Below are positions 13,539-58,898 of a DNA stretch of 64,000 nucleotides, piece by piece; within the stretch, counting starts at the first letter, position 1, and each line of letters starts with the position of its first letter. A program made the translations under genes and the position numbers. This stretch comes from an uncultured delta proteobacterium (lineage in GTDB: Bacteria; Myxococcota_A; Polyangia; Polyangiales; Polyangiaceae), in contig CAVQUB010000021.1 in NCBI GenBank assembly GCA_963716725.1, positions 256,001 to 320,000 of the forward strand. The letters are read 5' to 3'. The notes beneath the pieces were generated by a model. It was not told the origin of the DNA. It saw nothing but the letters and a program-made list of their open reading frames with translations, and did no database searches.

Positions 13539-13583
13539 ACCGAGCCCCCAGAGCCCCCAGGCGCCCGGCGCTGCCCCTAGACC

Positions 13584-15542
13584 GTGCCCACCGGTTCGGT
13601 TAAGATTCTAGGTTTAGAGGTCGTAGTCAGTAGGGAACATGCTGCTGGAACCAGAGCGACTCCGCTTGGCACTCTCCGTCGGCACTTCGAGGGGGGCGCG
13701 GCGAGCTTGACCCACCCAGCGGCCGCTCAGGGTGACGGAGCGCTGGGTCCGCGCGACCGAGGAACGATCCTGTTCGTCGACGATCAATCGACCCAGCTCC
13801 AGATCATCGGCCGCACTCTCGAGACCTCCGGCTACACCGTGCACACGGCGCAACAAGCGGAAACGAGCTTGCAGACCGCAGCGACGCACTCCATCGAGGT
13901 CGCTATCTGTGATCTGCACATGCCAATCGTCGATGGGATCTCCCTCATGCGTCGCCTCCAGGCGCACGACCCCAACTTGCCCGTGATCATTCTGAGCGCC
14001 GACGCGGACGTCAGCGGGATCCTCGATGCGGTGGGCGCAGGCGCGTTCGACTACGTGCTGAAGACGCCGGAGGGGCTCCGCTTGCTGCCGGTCGCGCTCG
14101 ACCGCGCGGTGAACCACTCGCGCGCGGCGCACCGAGCACAGCTTCTGACCAAGGAACTGGAGCGCGCAAATGCCGAACTGGAAGCGCGGGTGTCGCGCCG
14201 AACGGCGGCCCTCGAGGCGACCGTGGACCAACTCCGCCGTCGTCGGCAGGAGCTACAGACGGCTCTGGACGAGCTCGAAGCCGCCAAACAGCACATCATC
14301 ATGCAGGAGCGCCTGGCATCCATGGGCACGCTGAGCGCGGGCATTGCGCACGAGATCAACAACCCAGCGGCGGTCGTGATGGCCAACCTCGAACTGGCGC
14401 GCGCCGACCTCGAGACGCTCGACGAAGCCGCCTCCGAAGTTCGGCGTTGGGTAGTGGCTCATCCGGAACTGGAGGAGCTTCAGGCGGTTTTCCAGCAAAG
14501 CGAGCTCTCGCCTAGACTGAGTCGACTGCGCGACGTCGTCGCGGATGGTCTCGAGGGCATCCAAAGGATCGCTACCTTGAGCGCCGATCTCCGCGTCTTC
14601 AGCCGACACCAGAACGACGAGCAAGAGCCCGTCGACATCAACGCGACGGTCGCTACGGCTTGCCGGATGGCCGGGAACGAGATCCGGCACCGCGCGACCC
14701 TGCACGCGGACTACCAGCCACTGCCGCAGATCCTCGGAAACCGGCTGAAGCTGAGCCAGGTGGTGCTCAACCTCTTGATCAACGCCGCGCACGCGATCCC
14801 CGAGGGAAACACCCAGCAGCACCGAGTCAGTGTGCGGACATCGATTGCGGGTGAGCTGCTCTGCATCGAAGTGGCAGACACCGGCCTCGGTATCCCCCCC
14901 GAGATCGCCCCGAGGATCTTCGAGCCCTTCTTCACGACCAAGCCAGTGGGCGAAGGCACCGGCCTCGGCCTGGCGCTCTGCGCAAAGATCGTGCGCGATC
15001 ATGGCGGCGAGCTCACGTTCACCAGCACTCCGGGCGAAGGAAGCCGCTTCCTCGTCGAGATCCCCATCGGAACGAGCCCTGTCGCACCTGCCTCGCGCAC
15101 GCCCATTTCGACTCTTCCTCCGCCGCCCCTGGTCGGACTGCGGATCCTCCTGGTGGACGACGAGGAGCTCCTGCTCAAGGCGCTGCGCCGCACCCTCGCC
15201 GGCAACGAAGTCGTGCTGGCGCAGGGGGGGAGCGTCGCGCAGCGCACGCTCGCAGCGGACTCCAGCTTCGATCTGGTCCTGTGCGACCTGAAAATGGCCG
15301 ACGTCGATGGCTCCTGCCTGTATGAGAGCGTAGCGGCGACGGACGCGGATCTCGCCAGCCGGTTCATCTTCCTCACCGGCGGTGCCTTCGCGCCGCAAGC
15401 GACGGAGTTCCTCGACAGGGTCGGTGTTTGCGTGCTGAAGAAACCGACCTCGCGCACTGAGTTGGTCGAGGCATGCCAGACCACCCTCATGCGTGTCGGC
15501 CGGCGGCCCGTGGGCAGCAACCACGACGAGGTTCACTCGTGA
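13584..15542 (+). CDS. cytoplasmic hybrid histidine kinase (REC-coiled coil-HisKA-HATPase-REC)
   Basis: N-terminal REC (FVDD, CDLHMP, K); H-box AHEINNP; N-box NLLINA; DTGLG, FFTTK, GTGLGL; C-terminal REC (LVDD, CDLKM). True start may be TTG 13707. Confidence 0.9.
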
Positions 15543-15949
15543 TCCCAGAAGCGCCGGTGCTCGACGAGCAAGCGGTCTCGCTCCTTCGTCGGCTCGTCGG
15601 ACCGGACCGCCCTCACTTCCTGCGCGAGACCGTCGATACCTATCTCCGTGACGCTGAGGAGACCGCCATCGCTCTCGAGCGCGCGCTTCGCAACGCTGAC
15701 TCTGCGGAAGTGGCGGACGCCGCGCACCGAATTAAAGGCGCGAGCGCCATGGTCGGGGCCGCTCGCGTCGCCAACGTCGCTGAAGCCCTCCAGATCGCCG
15801 CCAGCGTGTCTGAAGTCAGCGCCTACGCCGGTCTCTTCGGCAGGCTCGAAGAAGAGCTCGAGCGGGCGAGGTCAGCGCTTTGTGAGCTGATATTCGAAGA
15901 CCACGACGCGACGAGAGCACACCCGCGAACCAAAGCAGGAGACCCATGA
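15539..15949 (+). CDS. Hpt (histidine phosphotransfer) protein
   Basis: AHRIKGASAMVGA motif; GTGA overlap with the upstream stop. Confidence 0.9.
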   Translation: MIPEAPVLDEQAVSLLRRLVGPDRPHFLRETVDTYLRDAEETAIALERALRNADSAEVADAAHRIKGASAMVGAARVANVAEALQIAASVSEVSAYAGLFGRLEEELERARSALCELIFEDHDATRAHPRTKAGDP

Positions 15950-17097
15950 CGAATACACTGAACCTCAAGCGCGGCGCGTCTCGAGCCAAGGACGAACTCG
16001 AAGCTGCGAGAGAGCTCTGGGAGGCCATCGGTCAGCCAGACATCTCGTTCTGCCTGTTCTTCTGCTCTCCCAACTACGACGTGAAGAAGCTCGGCCCGGC
16101 CCTCGCCGAGCACTTCGGCGCCTTGCCAATGCTGGGCTGCACGACAGCCGGAGAGATTTCGCCGACAGGCTACCTGAGCGGAGCGATCACCGGCATCAGC
16201 ATCGCTAGCCCAGACTTCAGGGTCGTGACGCGTCGCATCGACCAGCTCAATGCCTTCGATCTCGATGACGGTGAGAGGACGATCACTTCGCTCCTTGCAG
16301 AGCTCAAACAGGTCGGCGAACCACCGACGAGCGAAAACACCTTCGCGTTCTTGCTGGTCGATGGCCTGAGCCTACAGGAAGAGCGGGTGGTGGCGGGCCT
16401 GTGTCGCGGCATTGGCGACATCCAGCTTTTCGGCGGCTCCGCCGGCGACGAGGAGAACTTCTCGGCCACATACCTCTTCCATGACGGCGCATTTCACGAC
16501 AACGCGGCGGTGGTGGCTTTGGTGCAGACCCAGCGCCCCTTTCACGTCTTCAAGACCCAACACTTCGTGCCATCGGACGCGAAGCTCGTCGTCACCGGCG
16601 CAGATCCAGCCAATAGGGTAGTGACCGAGATCAACGGGGACCCCGCGGGCGCCGAGTACGCACGGCTCGTTGGCCTCGAAGTCGACAAGCTCACACCGAT
16701 GATCTTCGCGACCTACCCCGTGGTCGTGCGCCTTGGCGGCGACTACTACGTGCGCTCGATCCAGAAGGTGAACGAGGACGGGAGCCTCACGTTTTTCTGC
16801 GCCATCGACGAAGGCGTCGTGCTGACGATCGCGCAGGGCGTGGATTTCATTCAGAACCTCGAGGACGCCTTTGTAGGGGTCCAAAAGGCGGTGGGCGTGC
16901 CCGAGCTCGTCATCGGCTGTGACTGCATCCTCAGGAAGCTGGAGAGCGAGCAGAAGGGCATCAAGGCGCAGATCTCGGAGCTCATGACCAAGAACAACGT
17001 CATCGGTTTCGCCACCTACGGCGAACAGTTCAACGCGATGCACGTGAACCAGACCTTCACCGGCGTCGCCATCGGCGCGATGAGCGATGGCGAGTGA
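15946..17097 (+). CDS. nosP: FIST-domain nitric-oxide/heme sensor, NosP-like
   Basis: [74 protein letters not shown]; directly upstream of a hybrid kinase. Confidence 0.88.
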
Positions 17098-18874
17098 TGA
17101 ATTCAACGAGCTAGAGCTTCTCCGAAGCCGGAACGCTCGGCTCGAGAAGATCAACCGCGCGCTCATGGATCGGGTAGAGCGCTCGATGGACCAGCAGGGC
17201 AGCGCCTACTCTCTGTTCCAGACCGCGACTGCGATGGAGGGCGAGCTTCGCAAGCGAACCGCAGCGCTCCGCAGCACCATGGAGGAGCTCGAGCGCTCCA
17301 ACCGCGATCTGTCCACGGCCAAAGAACTCGCCGACGCGGCCAATCGGGCCAAGTCCGACTTCCTTGCCAACATGAGCCACGAAATCCGCACGCCACTCAA
17401 CGGCGTGTTGGGCATGGTGGGTCTGCTCCTGAAGACCGATCTGGGACCGACCCAAGAGCACTACGCCGAGACGGTCCGGCGCTCCGGCGACATCCTGCTC
17501 CGGATCATCAACGACATCCTCGATTTCTCGAAGATAGAGGCTGGTAAGCTGGAGCTGGAAAACACCAGCTACGATCTCAGGAGGGTCGTGGAGGACGCCA
17601 TCGAAGGGTTCGCCACGCGCGCTCACAACGCGCGGACAGAGCTGATCTGCGAGATCGCGCCTGAAGTCCCCCGAATCGTCAGCGGCGACCCTTTGCGGGT
17701 TCATCAGGTGCTCGCCAACTTGCTCTCCAACGCCATCAAGTTTTCCTGCAACGGAGACGTACGCCTCATCGTCGAAGTCCAGAAGGCACCTCCGGTCGAC
17801 GCCATTCGCTTCGAGGTTCACGACCAGGGGCAGGGGTTGAGCGGCGAGCAATGCACGCGCTTGTTCAGTGCGTTCACTCAAGCGGATACTTCGACCACGC
17901 GCCGGTTCGGCGGGACTGGCCTCGGCCTCGCCATCAGCAAGCAGCTCACCGAGATGATGGGGGGACGGATCGGGGTGCGGACTGCCATTGGCGAAGGCAG
18001 CACCTTTCATTTCACCGTGCCCTTCGATGCATCCGCGGCTCGAGCGACGGGCTGGGTCCCGAAGTTGTTCGACCGAACCGCCCTCGTCGTGGACGCGAGC
18101 GAAGGCAGCGGTCGGGCGCTGCTCACTCAGCTGGCGAGGCTGGGCCTTCACGCGACTCACCAGAGAAGTCTGGCCTCGGGGGCCAGCTGGCTCTCTGCCC
18201 AAGCTGGCGCCGTCGACTTGATCGTGGTGTCTCGCGAGACGGTCGGCAAAGACGACGCGGAGATCCACAGCGTCCTCGCGGCGAGCGGCCACCCCGAAGC
18301 GAAGACGCTGCTGCTGACGCCGTTTCTGGCTGACCTTGCGGAGTCGGCCGGCTCCACTGCCTACGACGCTGCCACGCACAAGCCGGTCACGCCCAGCCGG
18401 CTTCGAAGTGTCGTGGAGGCCGTGGTCGCGCCCGAGTTGAAGCCTCGACGCCGCAGTGTGAGCGTCCCGACCTCGAGACCCGCGCTCGGCGAGGTCGCCA
18501 GACCTCGGGTGCTCGTCGCGGAGGACAACCCCACGAACCAATTGGTCATCACCGCTCTCCTGGCGGAGCTCGGCTACGCAGCCGTCGTGGTCGGCAACGG
18601 AAGCGAGGCCATCGCCGCGCTCGAGGAGCCCCATGAAATTCGGGCTGTGCTCATGGACTGGCAGATGCCGATCATGGATGGAGTGGTGGCGACTCGCGAA
18701 ATCCGCCGGCTCGAAGCACTCCGGGGCACACGCGTACCCATCATTGGTCTGACCGCGCACGCGCTCAGCGACCAGAAGTCGGTCGCGCTCGATTCGGGCA
18801 TGGACGAATACCTCACCAAGCCGGTTCGTGAGGAGGAGCTGGCCCGAGCGCTGACGCGGTGGTGCGGAGTATGA
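17087..18874 (+). CDS. NosP-associated hybrid histidine kinase (NahK-like)
   Basis: N-terminal [27 protein letters not shown] coiled coil as seen in NosP partner kinases; [18 protein letters not shown]; degenerate REC plus canonical REC (AEDN, LMDWQMP, TKP). Confidence 0.88.
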
Positions 18875-22898: not shown

Positions 22899-23382
22899 CC
22901 TGGCTCTTCTTGGCGCACTCCGCACACGCGCCGTAGAGTTCGTGTTTGTGGTCACGGACCACGAACCCGTAGCGTGCCGCGATGGCATCTTGCAGCTCTT
23001 CGATGGCGGGCTCCTCGAACTCGGTGATCTTGCCGCAGTCGAGACAGATCAGGTGATCGTGGTGCGCATGTTCGTCAGCCAACTCGTAGCGCGTGAAGCC
23101 ATCGCCAAACTTGCGCTCGTGCACCAAGCCGCCTTCGGACAACAGCTTCATGGTTCGGTACACGGTGGCGTACCCCACGCGTGGATCCACGGCGCGAACG
23201 CTCTCGAGCAACTGGTCGATGGTCACGTGCTCGGTCACCTCGAAGAGTTGTTCGATGATCACGCGGCGCTGCTCGGTGCTGCGCAAGCCGCGCCTATCCA
23301 TGAACGCCGTCAGCTCCCCGCGGAGCCGCTCTCGATCGGGCGGGCGAGGTGCGCTTCGAGGCTGGTGATCGCCGCGCTTCAC
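22864..23382 (-). CDS. fur: Fur-family transcriptional regulator
   Basis: GLRSTEQR, ATVYRTM, HHDHLICLDCG, LYGACAEC. Start GTG 23382 or ATG 23301. Confidence 0.9.
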   Translation of the reverse strand: MKRGDHQPRSAPRPPDRERLRGELTAFMDRRGLRSTEQRRVIIEQLFEVTEHVTIDQLLESVRAVDPRVGYATVYRTMKLLSEGGLVHERKFGDGFTRYELADEHAHHDHLICLDCGKITEFEEPAIEELQDAIAARYGFVVRDHKHELYGACAECAKKSQVKPGRARSAHR

Positions 23383-23423
23383 CCACACTACATCGCGCCC
23401 GCAGCCCGAGGGGTCAAGCCATC

Positions 23424-25719
23424 TCAGCCTTCTCGGGAGCGCAGGCGGAAGAGTGCGGCGACGGTGCCCATCACCGCGGAGAGCGGCGCGACCGCGGGCG
23501 GCAGGAGCGCGAAGGCGACACCCAGGCTGGCCCCGAGCCCGGGGACGACAGTCAGCAGCAATCCCAAGCGAGCCTCTTGCTTCGCTCGGTGGGCGAGCCG
23601 AATGGCAAAGGCCGCGTCGCGAACGTCGTCGCTGGCGAGTTGAACGCCCCATTCCGCGGTGCTCGAGCCCGCGGAGCTCAACGCGGCGGAGACGTCCGCA
23701 GCCGCCAGGGCGACGTCATCGCCGGGGCTTCGACCCACGACCGCGACCGTAGCGCCGCCTGCCGCGAGCCTACGCACTTCGTCACCGCGATCGCCGGGCA
23801 GGACTTCGGGGCGGATGTGCTCGATGTCGAGCGCCCGGCCGATGGCCTCACAGGTCTCGCGTGCATCACCCGACAGGAGCACCGGCTCGACGCCCACGTC
23901 GAGCAGGTGTTGAACGGCCGCGCGAGCACCGGGACGCAAGCCATCCTGCAATCCCATGACGCCGACCAAGTGGCCCCCGAGAGCGACCAAGAGCACGGTG
24001 CGCCCCATGGCCTCCAGCTCGAGGATCTTCGGCTCGGCGGCGGCGACGCTGATGCGCTCCTTCAACATCAGCGCGCGGCTGCCGACGACCAGGGGCTGAC
24101 CGCTCGATGCCACTGCTGTCACGCCCAGACCCGCCTGCACGTTCGGGCTGCGCACGCCGTCGGGGCGAACGCCGCGGACCCGCGCGGCGCGCAGCACCGC
24201 CGTCGCCATGGGGTGTGTTTCGCCCGCTTCCGCGCCGGCGGTCAACGCGAGCACGCGCTCAGGCTCCGTCTCGCCAACGGGCTCGATATTGGTCACCTCA
24301 GGCTCGCCGAGCAGCAGCGTGCCCCGCGCGCAGAAGGCAGCGACCGCGACGCGTCCCGCCTTGTCCAGGGCTTCTGCCGATCGGAACACGATCCCGCGAC
24401 GCAGCGCGACCAACACCGCTTCGAGCACGTGGAGCGCGCCGATTTGGGCGACACCGGCGTTGGCGAGCGCAGTCTGCGCCGCGACCGCGAACATGGCGAT
24501 CACGAGCGGGGGCTGATCCTCCGCGTAGCCCGCCAGCGCCGCCAGGCCCGCCGCGGTGGGCGCGGCCCGCTCGGCGGTGAGCCGCCCCACGCGCGCTGCC
24601 GCAGCGAGACGGTCGGCGCGTCGCCTGAGATCGTTCGTGACGCGCATCCACGCGCGGTCGAGACCAGTCCAGGCCGCAACGGCCCGCACGCGGCCTTCGA
24701 TCACGGTGGCTCCCGCGACAACGTGGTCGCCTTCGCCCCGAATCGCGCTGGACCTCGCGCCGAGCCAAGGCGCGACGCGAGCCGAGCCGGCGGTGATGGT
24801 GGCGTCGACCGGAATGACCTCGCCCGGTTCGACGACGATCTCTTCACCCGGCCTGAGATCCTGCGCGCGCACCGTCGCTGTTTCGTCTCCGATCACCCTC
24901 CGACCCGAGCCCGACAGCGCTTCGGCGATGGCCTCGCGCTCCAGATCGAGAGGGCGTCGCGCTCGCCGTGTAAGCCAAATGCTCGCGGCCACCGCGGCGA
25001 GCACGACGCCTGCGAGGGTGACGGCAGCGCTGGCTTCCTTTGCGCCAGAGATGTGCCCGATGAACGCCAACGCGAGGGCGGCGATTGGGCCTGCAAGCAA
25101 CACGGCCGGATGGAGTTCGGTCGGATCACGTCGCGCCGTGACGGCTTCGGCGACGAGGGCAGCCGCGGCGACGCAAACAACCACCAGACGGGCGGTGAGG
25201 GCACCCGGCGAGCCGCCGGCCAAGCTGAGCGCGACCGACAGCATGCCGCCCGCGATGGTCAGGCCAAGCAAGAGCACGCCCACGTCAGCCCGCTCCGGCG
25301 ATCCGGACGAGGACAGGCTCGGCACCGACACCTCATCCGACGCCACCAGCTCCGGGTCGCCGAGCGCGTCGAGGTGGCTCGCGTCGTGGCCCGGTCCGAT
25401 CTGCGCGGCCGTCACGTCCGCGAGTGCTGCCACCTGCCGCCGCTGGTCGAGGGACTCGACGGCCTCGGCACGGGTCGCGACCACGTCGGCAGCGGGCGTC
25501 GCCGCCCTCCGCCGCTTGGGCATTGGTAGCGGAGTCTCGCGGGCCACCGGGTCGTAGTGCTCCCGGCATTCTGCGCTGCAAAAGTAGCGAAACTTGTCAT
25601 TGAAGATGGCCACCCGGGCCGCCCGCAGCGGATCGACGGCGCTGCCGCAGCCCGCGCAGCGAACCGGGCGGGCGCGCGGTCCCGTCCCAGGTTCGATCGG
25701 TGCCGGTGATTCCAGCGTC

Positions 25720-51050: not shown

Positions 51051-52283
<1,233 letters not shown>

Positions 52284-52570
52284 CGGGCGGGATTTGCCCT
52301 CGGTTGGGCGCCGGATCTCCCGAGCCGGCGCGGGGGCTGGCGCAACTGGAGGGCCGGCCTTAGGTTGCTCTCATCGGCGCCCGCTGGGGTCGCAGAGTAC
52401 CGCACCCATCCCCGCCCAACCCCGCTCGTCGGGCCGTCGAGCGCAGCGAGAGCCGCGTTTTCGCCCGACGCCTCCAGCGCGGCGCCGATATTTCTTCCGA
52501 GCCTCAGACGGTCAACGGCCCGACCTCGTCGCATCGACGGGGCCGGGCCGAGGGTTCGTGCCGCTGCTGA

Positions 52571-53497
52571 TCAGAGTCGGCGCAGCGCGATGGCAGCCGC
52601 GTCGCGGACGAACTGGTTGGGATCGCTCTCCGCAGCCTTGACCGCTTGCTTGGCCGCTGCGTCCGCGATCTTTCCGAGCGATGACACCGCAGCTGCTCGC
52701 ACATTCGCGTCGGATTCGGTGCTGGGCGACGTCAGCGCGATGAGCCCGACGACCGCGTCCTTGGTCCGCAGGGTGCCGAGGGCCTCGGCGGCCCGCTTGC
52801 GCACCAACGGCGACTGGTCGGAGATGCGCTTCACGACGGCGTCAGTGCCGGTGAAGACGTTCACGCGAGTGGCGGCGAAGAGCGCTTGCAGCCTCACGTT
52901 CTCGTCTTTGTCGCCGATGGCCGCGGCGAGCTCGCCGTTTGGTCCCTGACTATTGATGCGCCAGAGCGCATACGCCGCGGACTTGCGCACCTTGGCGGAG
53001 GGATCCGAGACCGCGGCCTGCGCGATCACGGGGATGCCCGGTGCCGCCAAGAACTCACCCAGCGCCTCGACCGCATAGGAGCGCTTGTTCTCGCTCGCGC
53101 TCTGGTCGGCGACGGTCTTCAGGGTCTGTTCGTAGACCTGACCGGGGCCGAACACCCCGAGGATGCGGCGGCGCAGCCACCACGCGCTGATCTCGCGGGT
53201 CCGGGCGTTGGAGTTGAAGATTAGCTTCGAGACGATCGGGATACAGTCGAGGCACTCGACCTTCTCCGCCTTCTCGAGCCGGGACCAGATCTCCGTCGGC
53301 GCGATGTTGGCGTTGCCGACTTCACGGATGGCCGCGGGTGAGGTCGGGTTCTCGAGCGAGAGCGGATCGAGGTTCTTGTACACCTGCGAGCGGCCGCCCA
53401 AGGTGTTGGTCGGTGCCGAGTCCGCGATGACGGCGCCGGACACGAGCAGCGTGGCTCCGGCGAGAAGTGCGCCCAGGGTGGTTCGAATGGTCTTCAT
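52571..53497 (-). CDS. exported HEAT-repeat protein
   Basis: Signal peptide, ECLDC, repeated D.S..VR..AA.AL.. units. Confidence 0.85.
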   Translation of the reverse strand: MKTIRTTLGALLAGATLLVSGAVIADSAPTNTLGGRSQVYKNLDPLSLENPTSPAAIREVGNANIAPTEIWSRLEKAEKVECLDCIPIVSKLIFNSNARTREISAWWLRRRILGVFGPGQVYEQTLKTVADQSASENKRSYAVEALGEFLAAPGIPVIAQAAVSDPSAKVRKSAAYALWRINSQGPNGELAAAIGDKDENVRLQALFAATRVNVFTGTDAVVKRISDQSPLVRKRAAEALGTLRTKDAVVGLIALTSPSTESDANVRAAAVSSLGKIADAAAKQAVKAAESDPNQFVRDAAAIALRRL

Positions 53498-53520
53498 GAC
53501 TTTCTCCGTTGCTCCTCAGC

Positions 53521-55884
53521 TCACTTGTATCCGCCGCCGCCAGCGAGGGGGTCGCTGCCGAATGGCTTGAATCCGGTGTTCTGGCGGGCGTAGTACTGGC
53601 CGCCGACGTCGATGGCGCGGATCAGCTTGGCGCGCTCGTCGCGGGTCAGGGTCACGCCCTTGTCTTCGGGGTGGAGCGTGCGCGTCCCGCCCTTGATGCC
53701 GGGGTCACTGAACGCCTCACCCAGCTTCCAAGCGGTCTTGTTCGGGTCCGTCGCCGAGACCATGTTGATCTTCTCGATCATCGCGCTGTTGCGGGCGTCG
53801 CTCGGCACGGCCCAGGCCGGCGGAATGGTGCCCGTGATTTGCATCTCGAGCTCGGTGCCCACCTCCATGCCCGCGGGGTAGAAGAGCGACACGTAGCTCG
53901 CCGGGTAGCTGGCGACCTTGTTGTCGTACATCACCGTGATGGGCGTCGTGCTCAGATCGAGGCGCGGGATCTGGTACAGCGTTGTCTCGCCCGTGAGCGG
54001 GTTGTTCATCGTCACGGTGTAGTACTCGGTCGTGCCCGAGTTGTGACAAGACACGCACTTGTCGTCGAGCACCTTCTGAATCTCATTGCCCTCGAAGCCG
54101 GCGTCCGCCTTGTACCAGGGGAACTCGGTGCGCTGGGCGATGGGCTTGTTGAAGTTCATCGGGTGGTCAGCCTTGGTCGGATCACCCTTGCCGGCGGCAG
54201 TGGTGAGCGCCTGCGACCCCGGCATCACCGGGCTCTTGCGGCTCTCGTGGCAACCGCCACACACCCGGTCTTCGCCTGGCATGCCTTGGATCCACAGCGT
54301 CTGGTTGCGGATGGCGAGTTCGAACTCGTCGACGGCCTGGAGATGCACCGGCACGTAGGGCGGAATGGCAGCGAGCCAAGAACCGTCGTCGTAGACCTCT
54401 GCTTCGCCGAGCACGGCCGCGCCTTCGGACATCGTGATTCCGAACATCGTCACGCCCGGAGCGCCTTCGCTGGAGAAGCCCTCGATGATGCGCACCTTCT
54501 TGGCGTGCTTGAGCGCCTCGTCCATCGGCGTGCTCTTGGTGAACTGGGCGCCCGACACGCTGTCGCCGTGCACCGCGGCAAGCGACGTCTGCTTGATGTC
54601 GATGGATCCGAGGACCGCCGGCACGGTCGAGTCCGGGGTGTCTTGGATGGATCCGATGATGGGCGGAGTGGTCCGCTTGACCACCGCCTTGGCGTAGATC
54701 TCCCAGGTTCCTTCGTAGTTCTTCACCAGCTGGTTGGTGCGGGTCTTCGGGTCATAGATGTACACGCCGAAGTCCGGCGGCGTCTGCGACAGCTCGTTCA
54801 GCTCGTTGACGAAGCCCTTGGCCCAACCCGTGAGAATGCGGCCGTCAGGCAGCACCGTGGGAGAGCGATAGCGACCAACGGGAGACGGTGCACGGTCCCG
54901 CGGAACGGCCTCGGAGAGCACCGTGTAGACCGGCTCCTCCTCGTAGAAGGCGGCGGGGTTGTCGGGGTTGCGTGCGTCAATCTGGACCAACGCTCCGGCG
55001 TGGTTGGGTTGCTGGCGGTCGGCGGCGACGGCCACGAACACGTTGGCGACGTTGGTCTCGATGCCCTGAACCAGCGAGTTCGACGGCTTGCCGTGTTGAC
55101 CACTGACCGCCGTCATCTGCGTGCAGTCGGGGTTCGAGGCAAAGAGCTTCGAATCGTTGACGTTCTCGAGGTGCTCCCAGCGGGTGAAACCGACGCGACC
55201 ATCTTGCATCGCGAAGGGGTTGACTGTGTGCGACAGGTTTTGCGAGCAGAGCTTGCGATCCGCGTCACCACCCGTGACCGAGACGAAGGCGAGCTGCGAG
55301 ACTTCACGGCTGTGGTTGTACTCGTCTGCGCGAGTCCCCATCTCGGTGTAGCCCTGGTTGGTCACGAAGGCGATCTTGTCGCCGGGGATCCACGCAGGCT
55401 GGATGTCGTCGTGGTCGCCGAAAGTGAGCTGGTGGATCTCGAACTTGCCGTCGTCCCCGGGCTGCAGACTGGCCCAGTACAGGTGGTACGAGTCGCTGCC
55501 GTTCTGCTTCATCGAAAACACGACCTTCGTGCCCTCGAAGTTCAGGTCGAGACCGGAGATGTCCGCGGTCTTGAAGTCCGAGATGATGTTCTCGGCGTTG
55601 CCCGTGGACAGATTGAAGATCTCGAGGCGCCCGCCCGGAACGAAGCGGTCGTAGTTCAGGACCTGCCCTTCGCCGTCCGCGACGTGCACGTTGTAGGTGC
55701 CGTCCTCGTTCATCGATGTCGTCTGCCGCACTGCGTAGACGAGCTGCTTCACATTCTTGATTGCGGGGCCCTCGGACTCCTCGCCCTTGTCGCTGGCGCA
55801 GCTCGACGCGGTCAAACCGAGAGCTACCAGGAAGGGGAGAGCGAGAGCGCGAACTAGGCGACGGCGCGAAGAGGTCTGTGCCAT
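53521..55884 (-). CDS. hydrazine synthase alpha-subunit-like lipoprotein (beta-propeller + middle domain + two c-type heme motifs)
   Basis: Lipobox ASSC; PD40/TolB-like repeats; GFTRWEH; LGEAEVYDDGS...LQAVD...QGMPGEDRVCGGCHE; second heme motif CVSCH; GGAGG RBS before ATG 55884. Confidence 0.78.
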   Translation of the reverse strand: MAQTSSRRRLVRALALPFLVALGLTASSCASDKGEESEGPAIKNVKQLVYAVRQTTSMNEDGTYNVHVADGEGQVLNYDRFVPGGRLEIFNLSTGNAENIISDFKTADISGLDLNFEGTKVVFSMKQNGSDSYHLYWASLQPGDDGKFEIHQLTFGDHDDIQPAWIPGDKIAFVTNQGYTEMGTRADEYNHSREVSQLAFVSVTGGDADRKLCSQNLSHTVNPFAMQDGRVGFTRWEHLENVNDSKLFASNPDCTQMTAVSGQHGKPSNSLVQGIETNVANVFVAVAADRQQPNHAGALVQIDARNPDNPAAFYEEEPVYTVLSEAVPRDRAPSPVGRYRSPTVLPDGRILTGWAKGFVNELNELSQTPPDFGVYIYDPKTRTNQLVKNYEGTWEIYAKAVVKRTTPPIIGSIQDTPDSTVPAVLGSIDIKQTSLAAVHGDSVSGAQFTKSTPMDEALKHAKKVRIIEGFSSEGAPGVTMFGITMSEGAAVLGEAEVYDDGSWLAAIPPYVPVHLQAVDEFELAIRNQTLWIQGMPGEDRVCGGCHESRKSPVMPGSQALTTAAGKGDPTKADHPMNFNKPIAQRTEFPWYKADAGFEGNEIQKVLDDKCVSCHNSGTTEYYTVTMNNPLTGETTLYQIPRLDLSTTPITVMYDNKVASYPASYVSLFYPAGMEVGTELEMQITGTIPPAWAVPSDARNSAMIEKINMVSATDPNKTAWKLGEAFSDPGIKGGTRTLHPEDKGVTLTRDERAKLIRAIDVGGQYYARQNTGFKPFGSDPLAGGGGYK

Positions 55885-56065
55885 TGGTTTCCTCCGAGGG
55901 GGGTTGCCCCGTAGCTTCCAAAAGCAGAATCCAGGCCAACCAGAAAACCCTGAGATCTGCGGTAGGTTCGCGGCCCACCGAGGGTGCCTGCCCCCACCGG
56001 GGTGGCCGGGCGCGGGGGCCGCTCCCCCCTGGCCCCCACCGGTGCGGGCCTCGTAGAGTGCCCCG

Positions 56066-56729
56066 GTGAACCTCCAGTGGGACGAGCGCGGGTTGATTGT
56101 GGCGGTGGCCCAAGACCGGCTGACAGGTGAAGTGCGCATGGTCGCGTGGATGAACGAGGCTTCCCTCGCAGCGACCCGCGAGACGGGCTTCGCTACCTTC
56201 TTCAGCCGATCGCGGGGCGAGCTCTGGCAGAAAGGAGCGACCAGCGGCAATCGCCTCCGAGTCCTCTCGGTCACTGCGGACTGCGATGGCGACACCCTGC
56301 TCTTGGCTGTCGACCCCGAAGGACCCTCGTGCCACACCGGCCGTTCGAGCTGTTTCTTCCAACCGCTCGACGAGGCCTCGCGCGAACTCCCACCCATCTT
56401 GGTCGATTCTCGAATCCGCGATCGCCGCACGGGCGAGCAGTACGGCCAGCGAGAGCTACACCCGGTCGCTACTCGACGGGGGTGCTCCACAGATCGGCGC
56501 CAAGCTCACGGAAGAAGCCGCAGAGTTGGCGGCCGCGATCGCCAGCGAGTCCGACGAGCGAGTCATCGCGGAGAGCGCGGACGTCCTCTTTCACTTGCTG
56601 GTGGGACTGCGGTCCAGACAGGTAGCGCTTCGCGAAGTACTTCATGAGCTCGCGCGCCGGGTCGGCACGAGCGGGCACGCGGAGAAGCGGTCGCGTGGGC
56701 CCGGGGGCGGCGGCCCGCAGCAGGTTTGA
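56066..56729 (+). CDS. hisIE: bifunctional phosphoribosyl-AMP cyclohydrolase / phosphoribosyl-ATP pyrophosphatase; 1-nt frameshift near 56402
   Basis: HisI motifs SRSR..LWQKG, DCDGD, CHTGRSSCF; HisE motifs SYTRSL, KLTEEAAE, ESADVLFH in the next frame. Confidence 0.9.
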
Positions 56730-56816
56730 CCCTGCTCCAAGTGGCCGATATTGTGGGCCACTCGCGTAAACGCTGCCGGTCATCTCGGCCGGACCCCTCC
56801 CCGCGGAAAGCTCGAA

Positions 56817-58898
56817 ATGAAGGTATTGGTCTTCGAAGCGGACGCACAATTCGCGGCGCTCATCCAAGGCGGTCTCGCTGCTCTGGGCTGCGAGACGACG
56901 ATCGTCGATGAAGCGAACGTGGGATTGCAGGAGGCGGCTTCGAACAAGCCCGATCTGATCCTGCTCTCGATCGAGCTTCCGAAGATGAACGGGTTCTCGG
57001 TCTGCAACAAGCTCAAGCGTGACCCCTCGCTCAAGGACGTTCCGCTGATCATCATGAGCAGCGACTCGACGGAAGAGACCTTCGAGCAGCACCGGCGCCT
57101 GCGCACGCGCGCCGAGGACTACGTGCACAAGCCCATCGACTTCGTGGACTTGATGGGCCATGCGAGAGCGTTCGTCGCGCTACCGGACAGCGGCGGGATG
57201 ACCGACCCGCCGCCAAGCGACGACATCGTCATCGACGACGAAATCGTGCTCGACGACGCGCAGCCGCTCGCTGAAGACGCCGGCGCGGAAGGCTCGCTCG
57301 ACGACGTATTCGACTCGCTGCAGCAGAAGCCGAGCGAGCCCACACCCGCACCCACACCCGAGCCTGAGCCCGCACCCGAGCCCGCACCCGAGCCCGCGCA
57401 AGAGGCCGCGCCGCCACCGCCCCCGGTGGCATCGGTACCGCCACGGGCGTCCGCAGAGCCGGCCCTGCAGGCGGAAGTCGACAAGCTCCGCGCCCGCAAC
57501 GCCGAGCTCGAGACCGACCTCGACGCCTTCAGGCAGAAAATAGCCGGCCTCGAAGACGGCGCCAGCCGGGAGGCGAGCAAAGACGCCGAAGTCCAGAAGC
57601 TCAAGCGCGAGCTCGACGACACCAAGGCCAAGCTGGCCTCGTCGAGCAAAGGTGGCGGCAGCTCGGCCCGCGAGTTCCTGGACTTGCGCGAGCAGCTCAA
57701 CAAGAAGGACAAAGAGCTGCTGGACCTGCGCGAGCAGGCCACCGGCAAAGACAAGGAGCTGCTCGGGCTCCGCGACTCGGCGCTGAAGCTCGACCGCGAC
57801 AAAGCGGATCTCAACGACCGGATCGCCGAGCTCGAGTCGCAGCTGTCCGACGCGCAGAAGAACCTGGACGTAACCCGCGCCGACAAGGAACAAGCCAGCA
57901 AGCGCGCGGACGACTTCAAGCGCAAGAGCGAGAAGCTGACCGGCGATCTGGAAGCCAAGAGCAGAGAGCTCGACGACGAAAAAGAAGCCAACGTCCGCGA
58001 GTTCGCAACGCGAGACGCGAAAGAGGCTTCTCTGCGGGTCGAGCACCAGGAGCAGCTCGAAGCGGCGGAGGAGAAACGCAAGGCGGACGTCGCCGCGGCA
58101 GAGGAGCAAGGCCGGACGAACCTCGCGGAGGCGGTCGAGCAGGCCCGGAGCGAGGCGGCGGACGCAGAGGCCGCTGCCCTCGAAGCGGCCGCCCAGGCAG
58201 CGGAGCGCGCCAAGGCGGAGGCCATCACCCAACGCGAGAGCGAGCTGAAGAAGGAATACGACTCGAAGATGGCCGCACTGCATCGCGCCAACGAAGACGC
58301 GATGAACAAGCTCAAGGCCGAGCACGCCCAGGCGATGGAGGACGCAAACGCGGCTTCCAAGCTGCGCCTCGCCGATCGCGAGTCCGAGCTCGCTGCCGCT
58401 CGCGCACAGTCGGAGGCCGAGCTCACCGCCGCCCACGACGGCACGAAGGCCGAGCTCGGCGAGACGCGGGAGAAGCTCCGGGCGGTCGAGCAGGCCAAGG
58501 AGGAGAGCGAGGCCGCCCGCGACGCGCAGATCGCGTCCCTGAAGGGCGATCTCCAGGAGCGGACAGAGGAACGCGACGCGGCCAACGGGACCATCCGCGA
58601 TCGCGACGCCAAGATCGCCGAGCTCGAGAGCGCGCTCGCGACGGAGAAGACCGAGCTGGCGTCCGCCCGCGAGACCATCCAGACGCGTGACGGGCGAGTC
58701 TTCCAGCTCGAGGCCGAGTTGGCCGCGACCCGGGGCGATCTGGACACGACCAGCGCCAACCTGGCCGCGGAGGCCAACCGCTTGACCAAGGCCCGCGCGA
58801 AGTGGGGCGAGGACAAGGGGGCGCTCGAACGAGCCAAGGACGCCTTGGCGGCGGCTCTCTCGCAGATCGAGGACGCTGAAAACCGGCCCTTCGACTGA
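56817..58898 (+). CDS. FrzS-like atypical receiver + long coiled-coil protein
   Basis: Pseudo-receiver (DLILLSIELP; FEQHRRLRTRAEDYVHKP), Pro-rich linker, more than 450 aa of coiled coil. Confidence 0.8.
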   Translation: MKVLVFEADAQFAALIQGGLAALGCETTIVDEANVGLQEAASNKPDLILLSIELPKMNGFSVCNKLKRDPSLKDVPLIIMSSDSTEETFEQHRRLRTRAEDYVHKPIDFVDLMGHARAFVALPDSGGMTDPPPSDDIVIDDEIVLDDAQPLAEDAGAEGSLDDVFDSLQQKPSEPTPAPTPEPEPAPEPAPEPAQEAAPPPPPVASVPPRASAEPALQAEVDKLRARNAELETDLDAFRQKIAGLEDGASREASKDAEVQKLKRELDDTKAKLASSSKGGGSSAREFLDLREQLNKKDKELLDLREQATGKDKELLGLRDSALKLDRDKADLNDRIAELESQLSDAQKNLDVTRADKEQASKRADDFKRKSEKLTGDLEAKSRELDDEKEANVREFATRDAKEASLRVEHQEQLEAAEEKRKADVAAAEEQGRTNLAEAVEQARSEAADAEAAALEAAAQAAERAKAEAITQRESELKKEYDSKMAALHRANEDAMNKLKAEHAQAMEDANAASKLRLADRESELAAARAQSEAELTAAHDGTKAELGETREKLRAVEQAKEESEAARDAQIASLKGDLQERTEERDAANGTIRDRDAKIAELESALATEKTELASARETIQTRDGRVFQLEAELAATRGDLDTTSANLAAEANRLTKARAKWGEDKGALERAKDALAAALSQIEDAENRPFD

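Follow-up and report, generated by a model that had tools for sequence, protein, structure and literature searches.

No enzyme other than hydrazine synthase is known to produce hydrazine, and whether it arose by de novo birth or by recruitment of existing periplasmic haem proteins is under debate (PMC12758564). The locus described here raises the question of what a relative of its alpha subunit, HzsA, does in a myxobacterium, where its gene stands next to that of an exported HEAT-repeat protein. Both genes are located in the window, a stretch of 64,000 nucleotides from a genome of the Polyangiaceae, and all features within them lie on the minus strand. An initial annotation of the window had described a two-gene envelope redox module, possibly involved in NO or hydroxylamine chemistry.

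The gene of the HzsA-like dihaem lipoprotein, in the following called the alpha-like protein, extends over 53521..55884 and encodes 787 aa from an ATG start codon. The reading frame is open up to a GTG at 56490, but this alternative start was rejected because 25 of 25 aligned orthologues begin at the equivalent of the ATG; it is further disfavoured by the PRA-CH (hisI) gene on the plus strand at 56066-56647. The N-terminus of the protein is MAQTSSRRRLVRALALPFLVALGLTASSC. In the translation, a signal sequence and a lipobox ending in Cys29 were recognized (55798..55884), and this cysteine is found in every one of 26 aligned sequences and in 39 of a set of 40. By the sequence pattern and the conservation of Cys29, the protein is taken to be a lipoprotein.

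The structure was predicted with AF2 (pLDDT 83.9, pTM 0.83). The model contains a six-bladed TolB-like beta-propeller at approximately residues 40-405 (54670..55767), for which a VIA comparison of model residues 37-404 with the six-bladed propellers of TolB gave a Z of 26-27 across some 270 residues. The propeller bears a D187-E188-Y189 loop, W236/H238 and D253, all invariant in the aligned set of the family; loop 181-192, which contains the DEY motif, has a pLDDT below 50. It is followed by the HZS_alpha middle domain (residues 481-547, 54244..54444), for which the Pfam profile PF18582 reaches 50.1 bits (cut-off 26.6, E 4.2e-13) with positions 32-98 of its 98, the match stopping just past the first haem motif. 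The middle domain was aligned with residues 504-561 of HzsA from Kuenenia stuttgartiensis (5C2V chain A, 5c2v_A). This chain is the best PDB match (Foldseek E 1.2e-30, compared with 1.5e-10 for TolB) and the sole full-length structural match, with a VIA Z of 35.7, an rmsd of 3.3 and 20% identity over 593 residues (model 42-773); at the sequence level, five colinear local matches were obtained (profile E 2.2e-10). More than 1100 database proteins match the alpha-like protein at E<=0.001. The lipoprotein, its propeller, the HZS-alpha segment ending in CGGCH and the second motif CVSCH, as given in the initial annotation, were thus all recovered, and the likeness to HzsA was borne out by both profile and predicted structure.

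Haem motif 1, CGGCH (C542, C545, H546; 54247..54261), is aligned to CSGCH of 5c2v_A and is the counterpart of HzsA haem alpha-I. Haem motif 2, CVSCH (C610, C613, H614; residues 610-614, 54043..54057), is aligned to CAMCH and corresponds to haem alpha-II. All 40 aligned sequences of the family, down to 23% identity, carry both CxxCH motifs, and the alpha-like frame is the only CxxCH-bearing one among the plausible coding frames of at least 150 aa in the window. According to Hagglund et al. (PMC12758564), the iron of haem alpha-I in HzsA is ligated by Tyr591, four residues past the CxxCH His, and His772 is the distal His that makes haem alpha-II bis-His. A Tyr four residues after the haem-1 His is absent from all 40 alpha-like sequences (position 550 is K, T, G, N, S or another residue), so the haem-1 ligand is probably an ordinary His. 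The protein of the window has no Tyr between H546 and Y591, and in the family consensus the first Tyr is found in EYPW, about 40 residues on. For haem 2, conservation suggests His738 (53671..53673; invariant in 26 of 26 sequences, present in 32 of 40) as a candidate distal ligand; it is located eight residues ahead of an LTR(D/E)ER helix, as compared with four residues between His772 of HzsA and the aligned helix. The Zn site of HzsA is formed by the CxxCH His and Cys303. In the alpha-like protein, C213 and C254 are conserved only among closer relatives.

The alpha-like gene is separated by a 23-nt spacer (53498..53520), with a GGAG ribosome-binding site 8 nt ahead of the next ATG, from the gene of the exported HEAT-repeat protein (52571..53497, 308 aa), the candidate partner subunit. 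The latter matches HEAT_2 (PF13646) with 106.6 bits (cut-off 27.7, E 7.8e-31) and HEAT (PF02985) with 69.5 bits (cut-off 23.5), and a Sec-type signal sequence was read by eye from the translation at residues 1-26 (53420..53497). The CxxC reported in the initial annotation is CLDC at residues 82-85, and both of its cysteines occur in 79 of 79 orthologues. It belongs to a signature helix, E75-x2-E78-x3-C82-x2-C85 (53243..53275), in which the four named residues are invariant in 43 of 43 sequences, down to 27% identity; the same holds in these 43 sequences for W106 and W107 of an A105-W106-W107 motif (53177..53185). RNA-library contigs of one study map within both genes, one of them spanning 53286-53601 and hence the junction, which is a weak sign of expression, as DNA may occur in such libraries.

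The two genes form one conserved unit. Of 80 Polyangiaceae loci, 78 have the HEAT gene directly downstream of the alpha-like gene in the same orientation, and in the remaining two only 210 and 9 nt of sequence are left. The adjacency extends to all 18 orthologous loci of other families (29-47% identity), where the HEAT gene was kept while the flanking hisI and response-regulator genes were lost from the neighbourhood; in the window, the neighbours are the HEAT gene and a convergent thiolase gene. Among 401 Myxococcota genomes, 34 hold the alpha-like gene (E<=5e-76) and the identical 34 hold a full-length HEAT match (E<=1.9e-63), with no genome having one alone, although these genomes are kin and 34/34 therefore overstates their independence. 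All 34 belong to the class of the window itself, the Polyangia, and the next-best HEAT match among the 401 genomes (9e-29) covers generic repeats only.

A direct interaction is predicted as well. The complex of the alpha-like and HEAT proteins was scored 0.90, 0.86 and 0.91 (best control 0.08), and the mark applied was attained by 116 of the 157 solved complexes and by 2 of the 215 mismatched pairs, counts that hold only roughly here, the complex having been folded with custom alignments. No complex like this one is known to us, so a memorised answer of the predictor is unlikely. The predictions comprise 253-258 contacts, of which at least 62% agree between runs, with a partner pLDDT of 87-91. 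On the alpha-like side, the interface includes the propeller loops 150-158, 181-194, 205-209, 237-244 and 262-269, the middle domain at 439-445, 472-485 and 527-529, and the C-terminal domain at 624-699; the CxxCH segments are absent from the contact list. The HEAT side includes E75, E78, C82 and W106, and five of the nine invariant HEAT residues fall within an interface that spans 81 of 272 residues, which is a mild enrichment. The invariant residues D187, E188, W236, H238 and D253 of the alpha-like protein are outside the list of confident contacts, and only their neighbours are inside.

The claim of a two-gene module stood with regard to the conserved dihaem lipoprotein and the exported HEAT/CxxC protein, whereas the usual operon has three genes: alpha-like, HEAT and a one-haem alpha-like paralogue of about 1000 aa, whose gene comes after the HEAT gene at 80 of 86 loci. 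In the lineage of the window, this paralogue has been relocated to two other genomic sites. The same genome contains a fourth alpha-like gene on contig 5, which adjoins a fused beta-gamma-like gene. Neither the DEY nor the W-x-H motif is retained by the g3 and contig-5 paralogues, for which the alignment is uncertain. Given the third conserved gene, a picture with two subunits may be incomplete, and in most relatives the one-haem protein probably works with the alpha-like/HEAT pair.

As the best explanation, we propose with a probability of about 0.6 that the products of the two genes are the subunits of a single c-type cytochrome complex, periplasmic and lipid-anchored, that works as follows. 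The alpha-like subunit retains the entire architecture of HzsA together with both haem-attachment sites. The HEAT solenoid would be its permanent partner, clamped onto the upper face of the propeller in contact with the middle and C-terminal domains, and would thereby set the invariant Glu/Glu/Cys/Cys helix against alpha-like loops that are invariant in the subfamily. Haem 2 (C610/C613/H614), whose sixth ligand is probably H738, may deliver electrons to an external partner or take them up from it. Haem 1 (C542/C545), with the ordinary ligand His546 instead of the Tyr of HzsA, would be the reactive one, situated where propeller and middle domain meet, and the cysteine pair of the HEAT protein may help to form its site, acting as a redox-active dithiol or binding a metal acquired in the periplasm. 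Such a complex would occupy the position of beta and gamma in hydrazine synthase, so it is not a hydrazine synthase. Improbable, by our estimate, is the more specific proposal that the pair and the one-haem third protein form a new periplasmic haem enzyme, in which the HEAT cap replaces beta/gamma and the Glu/Cys helix builds a metal or thiol centre beside the haem that matches the N-N-bond-forming haem of HzsA, with possible redox conversion of small nitrogen or sulfur molecules.

The conserved pairing could also mean that the HEAT protein is a maturation or assembly factor of the alpha-like cytochrome instead of a subunit, keeping the haem-binding cysteines reduced or aiding haem attachment before being released, which is how CcmH/NrfF-type CxxC proteins act on apo-cytochromes. 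Strict synteny and co-occurrence fit such a factor equally well, and the invariance of its CxxC pair would be expected; in addition, the repeats resemble the PBS-lyase HEAT type, members of which attach tetrapyrroles to cysteines (CpcE and NblB scores far below the cut-offs), and a gene for a DsbD-like thiol-disulfide transporter is located beside or near the alpha-like gene in five loci. However, DsbD is missing from the window and adjoins none of the 80 Polyangiaceae loci, and the second HEAT cysteine is followed by Ile or Val, so a haem-binding site is not present in the HEAT protein itself. Moreover, the predicted interface is very large and is formed with a folded three-domain protein, leaving the CxxCH segments untouched. 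Taken together, an assembly factor appears unlikely. Even less is to be expected of a non-enzymatic role, either as a plain periplasmic electron carrier or as a TolB-like envelope or scaffold protein with structural or sensing haems, which we regard as very improbable despite the TolB-like propeller, the usual function of HEAT solenoids as scaffolds and the lack of catalytic residues that could be named with confidence. The invariant polar residues D187, E188, S218, H238 and D253 cluster in propeller loops at the predicted interface and are joined by the invariant Glu/Cys helix of the partner, an arrangement typical of an active or metal site and not of a carrier, and the TIGR02800 TolB profile scores just 12.2 bits against a cut-off of 343 (343.15), which leaves a likeness in fold only and led to the rejection of an assignment as TolB.

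As to the turnover of NO or hydroxylamine by HzsA-like nitrogen chemistry at haem 1, possibly combined with NosP-type NO sensing, nothing was found that points there, and the proposal of the initial annotation is considered rather improbable. HzsA, the only characterised relative, does handle hydroxylamine and NO-derived nitrogen at the equivalent haem (PMC12758564; PMC12607021). Four cd1-domain genes are present in the genome of the window, two scoring 345-351 bits, and NO may therefore be made in the periplasm, but strong matches to cd1 nitrite reductase (E<=1e-70) occur in only six of the 34 carriers. The NosP-type gene itself is present, as a FIST N+C gene (15886-17097) followed by a hybrid kinase gene (both at 15886-18874); a link to the alpha-like/HEAT module was not found. 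DNA of the window occurs in metagenomes of biofilters, wastewater, sediment and groundwater, habitats in which nitrifiers are common. Against this, the conserved neighbourhood contains no nitrogen-metabolism gene, the HZS_alpha Pfam domain is also matched in Bacteroides thetaiotaomicron, and differences such as the missing Tyr at His+4 in all 40 sequences are read as loss of the HzsA mechanism by Hagglund et al. (PMC12758564).

With the alpha-like protein, a full-length relative of HzsA is now known that is frequent throughout one class of myxobacteria. It has exchanged the partners beta/gamma for an unrelated HEAT protein, has kept both haem sites and has gained an invariant site of its own at the predicted interface. 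Should the complex prove real, the alpha scaffold would be a general catalytic platform usable with different caps; if, beyond this, the module is a new enzyme, it would show the role of the alpha subunit before its recruitment by anammox bacteria. Some carrier genomes are single-contig assemblies, and if any of these stems from a cultured strain, a tractable system for the scaffold would be available, in contrast to the slow-growing anammox bacteria. Periplasmic redox activity of the module in biofilters, wastewater, sediment and groundwater could matter for element cycling.

Compared with known systems, the alpha-like protein shares the six-bladed propeller with TolB, which has no haem domains and, judging from PDB entry titles, also binds partners on the propeller face. 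The HEAT partner shares HEAT_PBS and HEAT_2 repeats with PBS-lyase-type proteins (CpcE/CpcF, NblB, YibA-like). An assignment as E/F-type phycobilin lyase was rejected (CpcE 29.8 bits against 330, CpcF 16.3 against 220), and NblB (34.1 bits, cut-off 300) and PRK09687 (23.4 bits, cut-off 275) are likewise far under. It differs from these proteins in being exported and in its N-terminal ExxExxxCxxC...AWW signature, which was compared within the partner family only. With HzsA, the alpha-like protein shares the propeller, middle and C-terminal cytochrome domains, the succession of both CxxCH motifs and a C-terminal helix with the conserved pattern LT..ER..ID.G.Q. It differs by a shorter linker between the haem motifs (64 residues, 98 in HzsA), by its putative lipid anchor, by its predicted HEAT partner in place of beta/gamma and by its hosts, a class of myxobacteria instead of anammox Planctomycetota. 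Cultured members of this class are mostly aerobic. The equivalog NF052339 is matched with 39.1 bits at a cut-off of 800, by residues 487-548 only. In agreement with the initial annotation, no beta/gamma (HzsB/C-like) gene was detected in the window by tblastn with the contig-5 beta-gamma-like protein (E<=1e-3). The score, the lack of the His+4 Tyr and the lack of this gene in the window led to the rejection of the alpha-like protein as a hydrazine synthase. HzsA homologues outside anammox bacteria had been described as uncharacterised, which is still true for their function, while their existence was already surveyed by Hagglund et al. in 2025 (clades I-IV, PMC12758564). A HEAT-paired form was not found in the published literature, and 'Myxococc', 'Polyang' and 'HEAT' are not mentioned in the main text of PMC12758564. 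The clades I-IV are likewise distant relatives of HzsA that kept the haem alpha-I site and miss Tyr591 and Ser590; clade I has no distal His772 (PMC12758564), whereas the alpha-like family has His738 near that place. These clades were selected for an alpha gene beside a beta-gamma gene (PMC12758564), a type which the contig-5 alpha-like/beta-gamma cluster of the genome of the window resembles, whereas the alpha-like gene of the window stands beside a HEAT/CxxC gene.

The pair of genes described in the initial annotation was confirmed throughout in the window sequence. According to ORF and translation, the gene for the large, HzsA-like protein (787 aa) is located at 53521-55884 (-) and the gene for the HEAT-repeat protein (308 aa) at 52571-53497 (-), separated by 23 nt containing a GGAG. 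Due to the G + C content of the window (63-71%), many long spurious frames occur. The frame of the large gene is open upstream as far as 56490. The ATG at 55884 was assigned as the start codon, because the equivalent methionine is the first residue in 25 of 25 aligned orthologues and the PRA-CH gene (hisI, 56066-56647, +) runs in the opposite direction; the extension 53521-56490 (-) was ruled out as coding by this overlap and by the orthologue starts. A 741-codon frame at 23304-25526 (+) was rejected as well, being antisense to a P-type ATPase gene with a chance CHCCH inside. Both spurious frames are typical of DNA at this G + C content.

The pair is flanked by a convergent thiolase gene downstream and by the divergent hisI and a gene for a 715-aa response regulator (56751-58898, +; receiver domain, weak DUF7801 match) upstream. 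hisI is kept in 75 and the response regulator in 72 of 80 Polyangiaceae loci. As functional partners both were rejected, since neither was found in any of 20 loci from other families, and their linkage is therefore read as local gene order only; like the thiolase, they have no relation to the pair. At 56407, inside the hisI ORF, the contigs of two DNA runs (X8, X1) have one base fewer, which may be an assembly difference or a strain variant and would shift the 3′ frame of hisI. Scans of 52200-56200 were uninformative; no promoter-like site was found, and of 5 terminator-like ones (2.7 expected), none lies at a gene end.

At the N-terminus of the large protein, a hydrophobic signal sequence ends in Cys29, which is invariant in 26 of 26 sequences and present in 39 of 40, a pattern that marks the protein as a putative lipoprotein. 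Tat export was dismissed, as orthologues do not share the RRR of this signal sequence. The Pfam domain HZS_alpha was found at residues 481-547 with 50.1 bits (cut-off 26.6) and ends just past the first haem motif CGGCH (residues 542-546); the second motif, CVSCH, comprises residues 610-614. With a profile of 26 family members, the sole PDB sequence found was the hydrazine synthase alpha subunit HzsA (5c2v_A, E 2.2e-10), matching in five colinear stretches from the propeller through the last helix. An AlphaFold2 model based on a 40-sequence alignment (pLDDT 83.9, pTM 0.83) also had 5c2v_A as its best PDB match (Foldseek E 1.2e-30, TM 0.62/0.64), and VIA-align superimposed 593 residues (model 42-773) with a Z of 35.7 and an rmsd of 3.3 Å. 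The next-best structural matches were TolB propellers (Z 26-27), covering residues 37-404 only. The large protein is thus a relative of HzsA along its full length.

The partner protein matches HEAT_2 (E 7.8e-31) and has a Sec-type signal sequence as judged by eye; phycobilin-lyase-type models scored far under their cut-offs. Ahead of the repeats lies a signature of E75, E78, C82, C85, R101, W106 and W107, invariant in 43 sequences with identities down to 27%, and all 79 of the orthologues have the pair C82/C85. With their spacing of i, i+3, i+7, i+10, both glutamates and both cysteines would face the same side of a helix. Since isoleucine or valine follows the second cysteine, the CxxC is not a haem-attachment motif.

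Conservation of the gene order was analyzed in 80 loci of species-representative genomes, whose labels are Polyangiaceae, Polyangia, Myxococcales or generic names throughout. The HEAT gene is the next gene downstream on the same strand in 78 of them, and the remaining two end 210 and 9 nt past the large gene. From the class's other families, 20 loci were obtained, and 18 of these are orthologous with room for a downstream gene. Their large proteins share 29-47% identity with that of the window, and the HEAT gene is next in every case, although neither hisI nor the response regulator is there. Across the 401 Myxococcota genomes sampled, exactly the same 34, all belonging to the class of the window, contain the large gene (E≤5e-76) and a HEAT match over the full length (E≤1.9e-63); the next HEAT score is 9e-29, with generic repeats only. 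These 34 co-occurrences are not 34 independent events, because the genomes are kin. In the family to which the window belongs, the pair is encoded by 14 of the 29 other genomes. The large gene and the HEAT gene are one unit.

The initial annotation had proposed a two-gene module. The pair itself is conserved, but the picture was incomplete, as 80 of the 86 loci that extend 1500 nt or more past the HEAT gene have a third gene there (76 by automated count and four whose tblastn match overlapped the end of the HEAT gene by 3-118 nt). Its product, e.g., L085:9178-12414 (+) and L098:1431-4394 (-), has about 1000 aa, contains a PD40 propeller and, near the C-terminus, one CxGCH, and shares 20-21% identity with the large protein. 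The three closest relatives of the window (L004-L006) are among the six loci that lack the third gene, and in the window the thiolase occupies its position. Two orthologues, 54-55% identical to the L007 copy, were found in the window's own genome on contig 6 (L107:7809-11051, +) and contig 8 (L108:7883-11077, +), with no HEAT gene nearby; in this lineage, the third gene is detached from the operon. The contig-6 copy is directly followed by a hemerythrin gene and preceded by genes for a cytochrome b/FlpD/4Fe-4S fusion and a beta-eliminating lyase.

Residues 45-772 of the large protein and 37-308 of the HEAT protein were co-folded, each with its own alignment. The predicted complex scored 0.90, 0.86 and 0.91 compared to 0.08 for the best control; 116 of 157 solved complexes attained the score mark, as did 2 of 215 mismatched pairs, and these counts hold only roughly here because analysis-specific alignments were used. 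The predicted interface comprises 253-258 contacts with a partner pLDDT of 87-91 and at least 62% contact agreement between runs. No solved complex is known to resemble this pair, so that a mere reproduction of a known structure by the predictor seems unlikely. In the predicted complex, the HEAT solenoid lies over propeller loops 150-158, 181-194, 205-209, 237-244 and 262-269, the middle domain (439-445, 472-485, 527-529) and the C-terminal domain (624-699), and the HEAT side contributes E75, E78, C82 and W106. The propeller residues D187, E188, S218, W236, H238 and D253, invariant in the aligned set, are located in or beside the interface loops, yet are themselves absent from the confident contact list; the loop D187-Y189 is poorly modelled. 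These propeller motifs are not kept in other alpha-like paralogues, where the alignment is uncertain. Together with the invariant HEAT residues, they may form a composite site to which both chains contribute.

It is possible that the HEAT protein is an assembly factor for the alpha-like cytochrome, which would fit its CxxC and the DsbD-like gene (DsbD_TM and a thioredoxin-like domain) that lies in the vicinity of the alpha-like gene, or diverges from it, at five loci from two or three sister families (L084; L085:4353-6164, -; L086:4933-6267, +; L088:8242-9930, +; L089:8629-9954, +). However, the predicted interface is large and lies on the folded protein, which favours a permanent subunit. The DsbD-like gene was rejected as a general partner, being confined to these five loci, with none in the 80 Polyangiaceae loci or in the window. 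The earlier view of a conserved envelope redox module is supported and extended, with the HEAT protein as a probable subunit.

The chemistry of NO or hydroxylamine that had been suggested for this module is not supported. Circumstantial points in its favour are the kinship to HzsA, a FIST gene 36 kb away and four cytochrome cd1 domain genes in the window's own genome. The FIST N + FIST C protein (NosP-type architecture; 15886-17097, +) is followed by a hybrid histidine kinase (17084-18874, +) and preceded by a further kinase/receiver protein (13581-15542); no tie between these genes (13581-18874) and the pair was seen. The cd1 matches are located on contigs 18, 34 and 20 (L109-L112), and as two of them score 345-351 bits in frames of about 687 aa, nitrite may be reduced to NO by this organism. 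Neither copper nitrite reductase (TIGR02376) nor hybrid-cluster protein (TIGR01703) gave a match in this genome; as it is 84% complete, either gene may have been missed. However, of the 34 genomes that encode the pair, only 6 have a strong cd1 match (27 such genomes occur among all 401 Myxococcota sampled), and the large protein does not have the special tyrosine ligand of HzsA. Furthermore, HZS_alpha is above its cut-off in the control genome of Bacteroides thetaiotaomicron and therefore also occurs beyond nitrogen-cycling or environmental bacteria. The conserved neighbourhood of the pair contains no gene naming a substrate.

Near-identical DNA was found in runs of eight studies covering biofilter, wastewater, sediment and groundwater. 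Both genes carry contigs from two metatranscriptome libraries of one study, and one 316-nt contig spans the gene junction (53286-53601); 55824-57000 and parts of both genes are not covered. These contigs are a weak sign of expression, since such libraries may hold DNA and a contig is no proof of a single transcript.

Hundreds of HzsA-like matches across bacteria are reported in PMC12758564, and hydrazine-synthase-like enzymes have been suggested in PMC10732223 to be a wider family with other substrates. The isolate label OFTM3 of one fetched locus, the MAG locus L044, fits the naming of the latter study. Among scored candidates, the family comprises 1117 proteins at E≤0.001, and the wider superfamily 3559 clusters at 50% identity, of which 186 reach E≤1e-30. 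A related cluster carries the automatic protein Atlas label 'HzsA-related protein family protein' and is commonest in Myxococcota; the range outside Myxococcota is based on such labels only. A literature search did not find hydrazine synthase together with HEAT repeat, a search with myxobacterial terms gave no mention of hydrazine synthase among the matches listed, and the main text of PMC12758564 does not contain 'Myxococc', 'Polyang' or 'HEAT'. Within those searches, the HEAT-paired form, the invariant cysteine helix, the predicted complex and the three-gene operon appear undescribed. The HEAT-paired form thus appears new, whereas the HzsA-like kind is already known, though uncharacterised.

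The large protein is not HzsA proper; it scores 39.1 bits with the NCBIfam HzsA equivalog (cut-off 800). According to PMC12758564, the iron of haem alpha-I in HzsA is ligated by Tyr591, four residues past the CxxCH histidine, and this histidine and Cys303 are zinc ligands. In contrast, a tyrosine at +4 from the haem-1 histidine is present in 0 of 40 sequences of the large-protein family; the first tyrosine past the motif in the large protein is its own Y591, and the family consensus is without tyrosine for about 40 residues. Haem 1 would accordingly have His546 as an ordinary ligand. The linker between the haem motifs also differs, with 64 residues compared to 98 in HzsA. A phmmer search with residues 520-640 against HzsA matched the two CxxCH stretches only and did not place Tyr591 or His772. 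His738 (invariant in 26 of 26 sequences, present in 32 of 40) lies just ahead of the conserved last helix, which aligns to the helix after HzsA His772, and is a candidate sixth ligand of haem 2. A second HzsA-like cluster is located on contig 5 of the same genome (L003, 336000-355999). It begins with a fourth alpha-like gene, for a protein of 1108 aa (L003:9162-12488, -; HZS_alpha 24.5 bits, CAGCH and CQKCH), after which come genes for a DUF3570 protein (L003:7880-8971, -), a 178-aa ORF product (L003:7340-7876, -) and an 817-aa protein with a seven-bladed propeller, CAHCH and CNSCH (L003:4890-7343, -). The 817-aa protein is similar to the fused beta-gamma homologues of PMC12758564. In PMC12758564, four clades with neighbouring alpha and beta-gamma genes were analysed and their key residues concluded not to be conserved, and it is the alpha plus fused beta-gamma clusters described there that this contig-5 cluster resembles.
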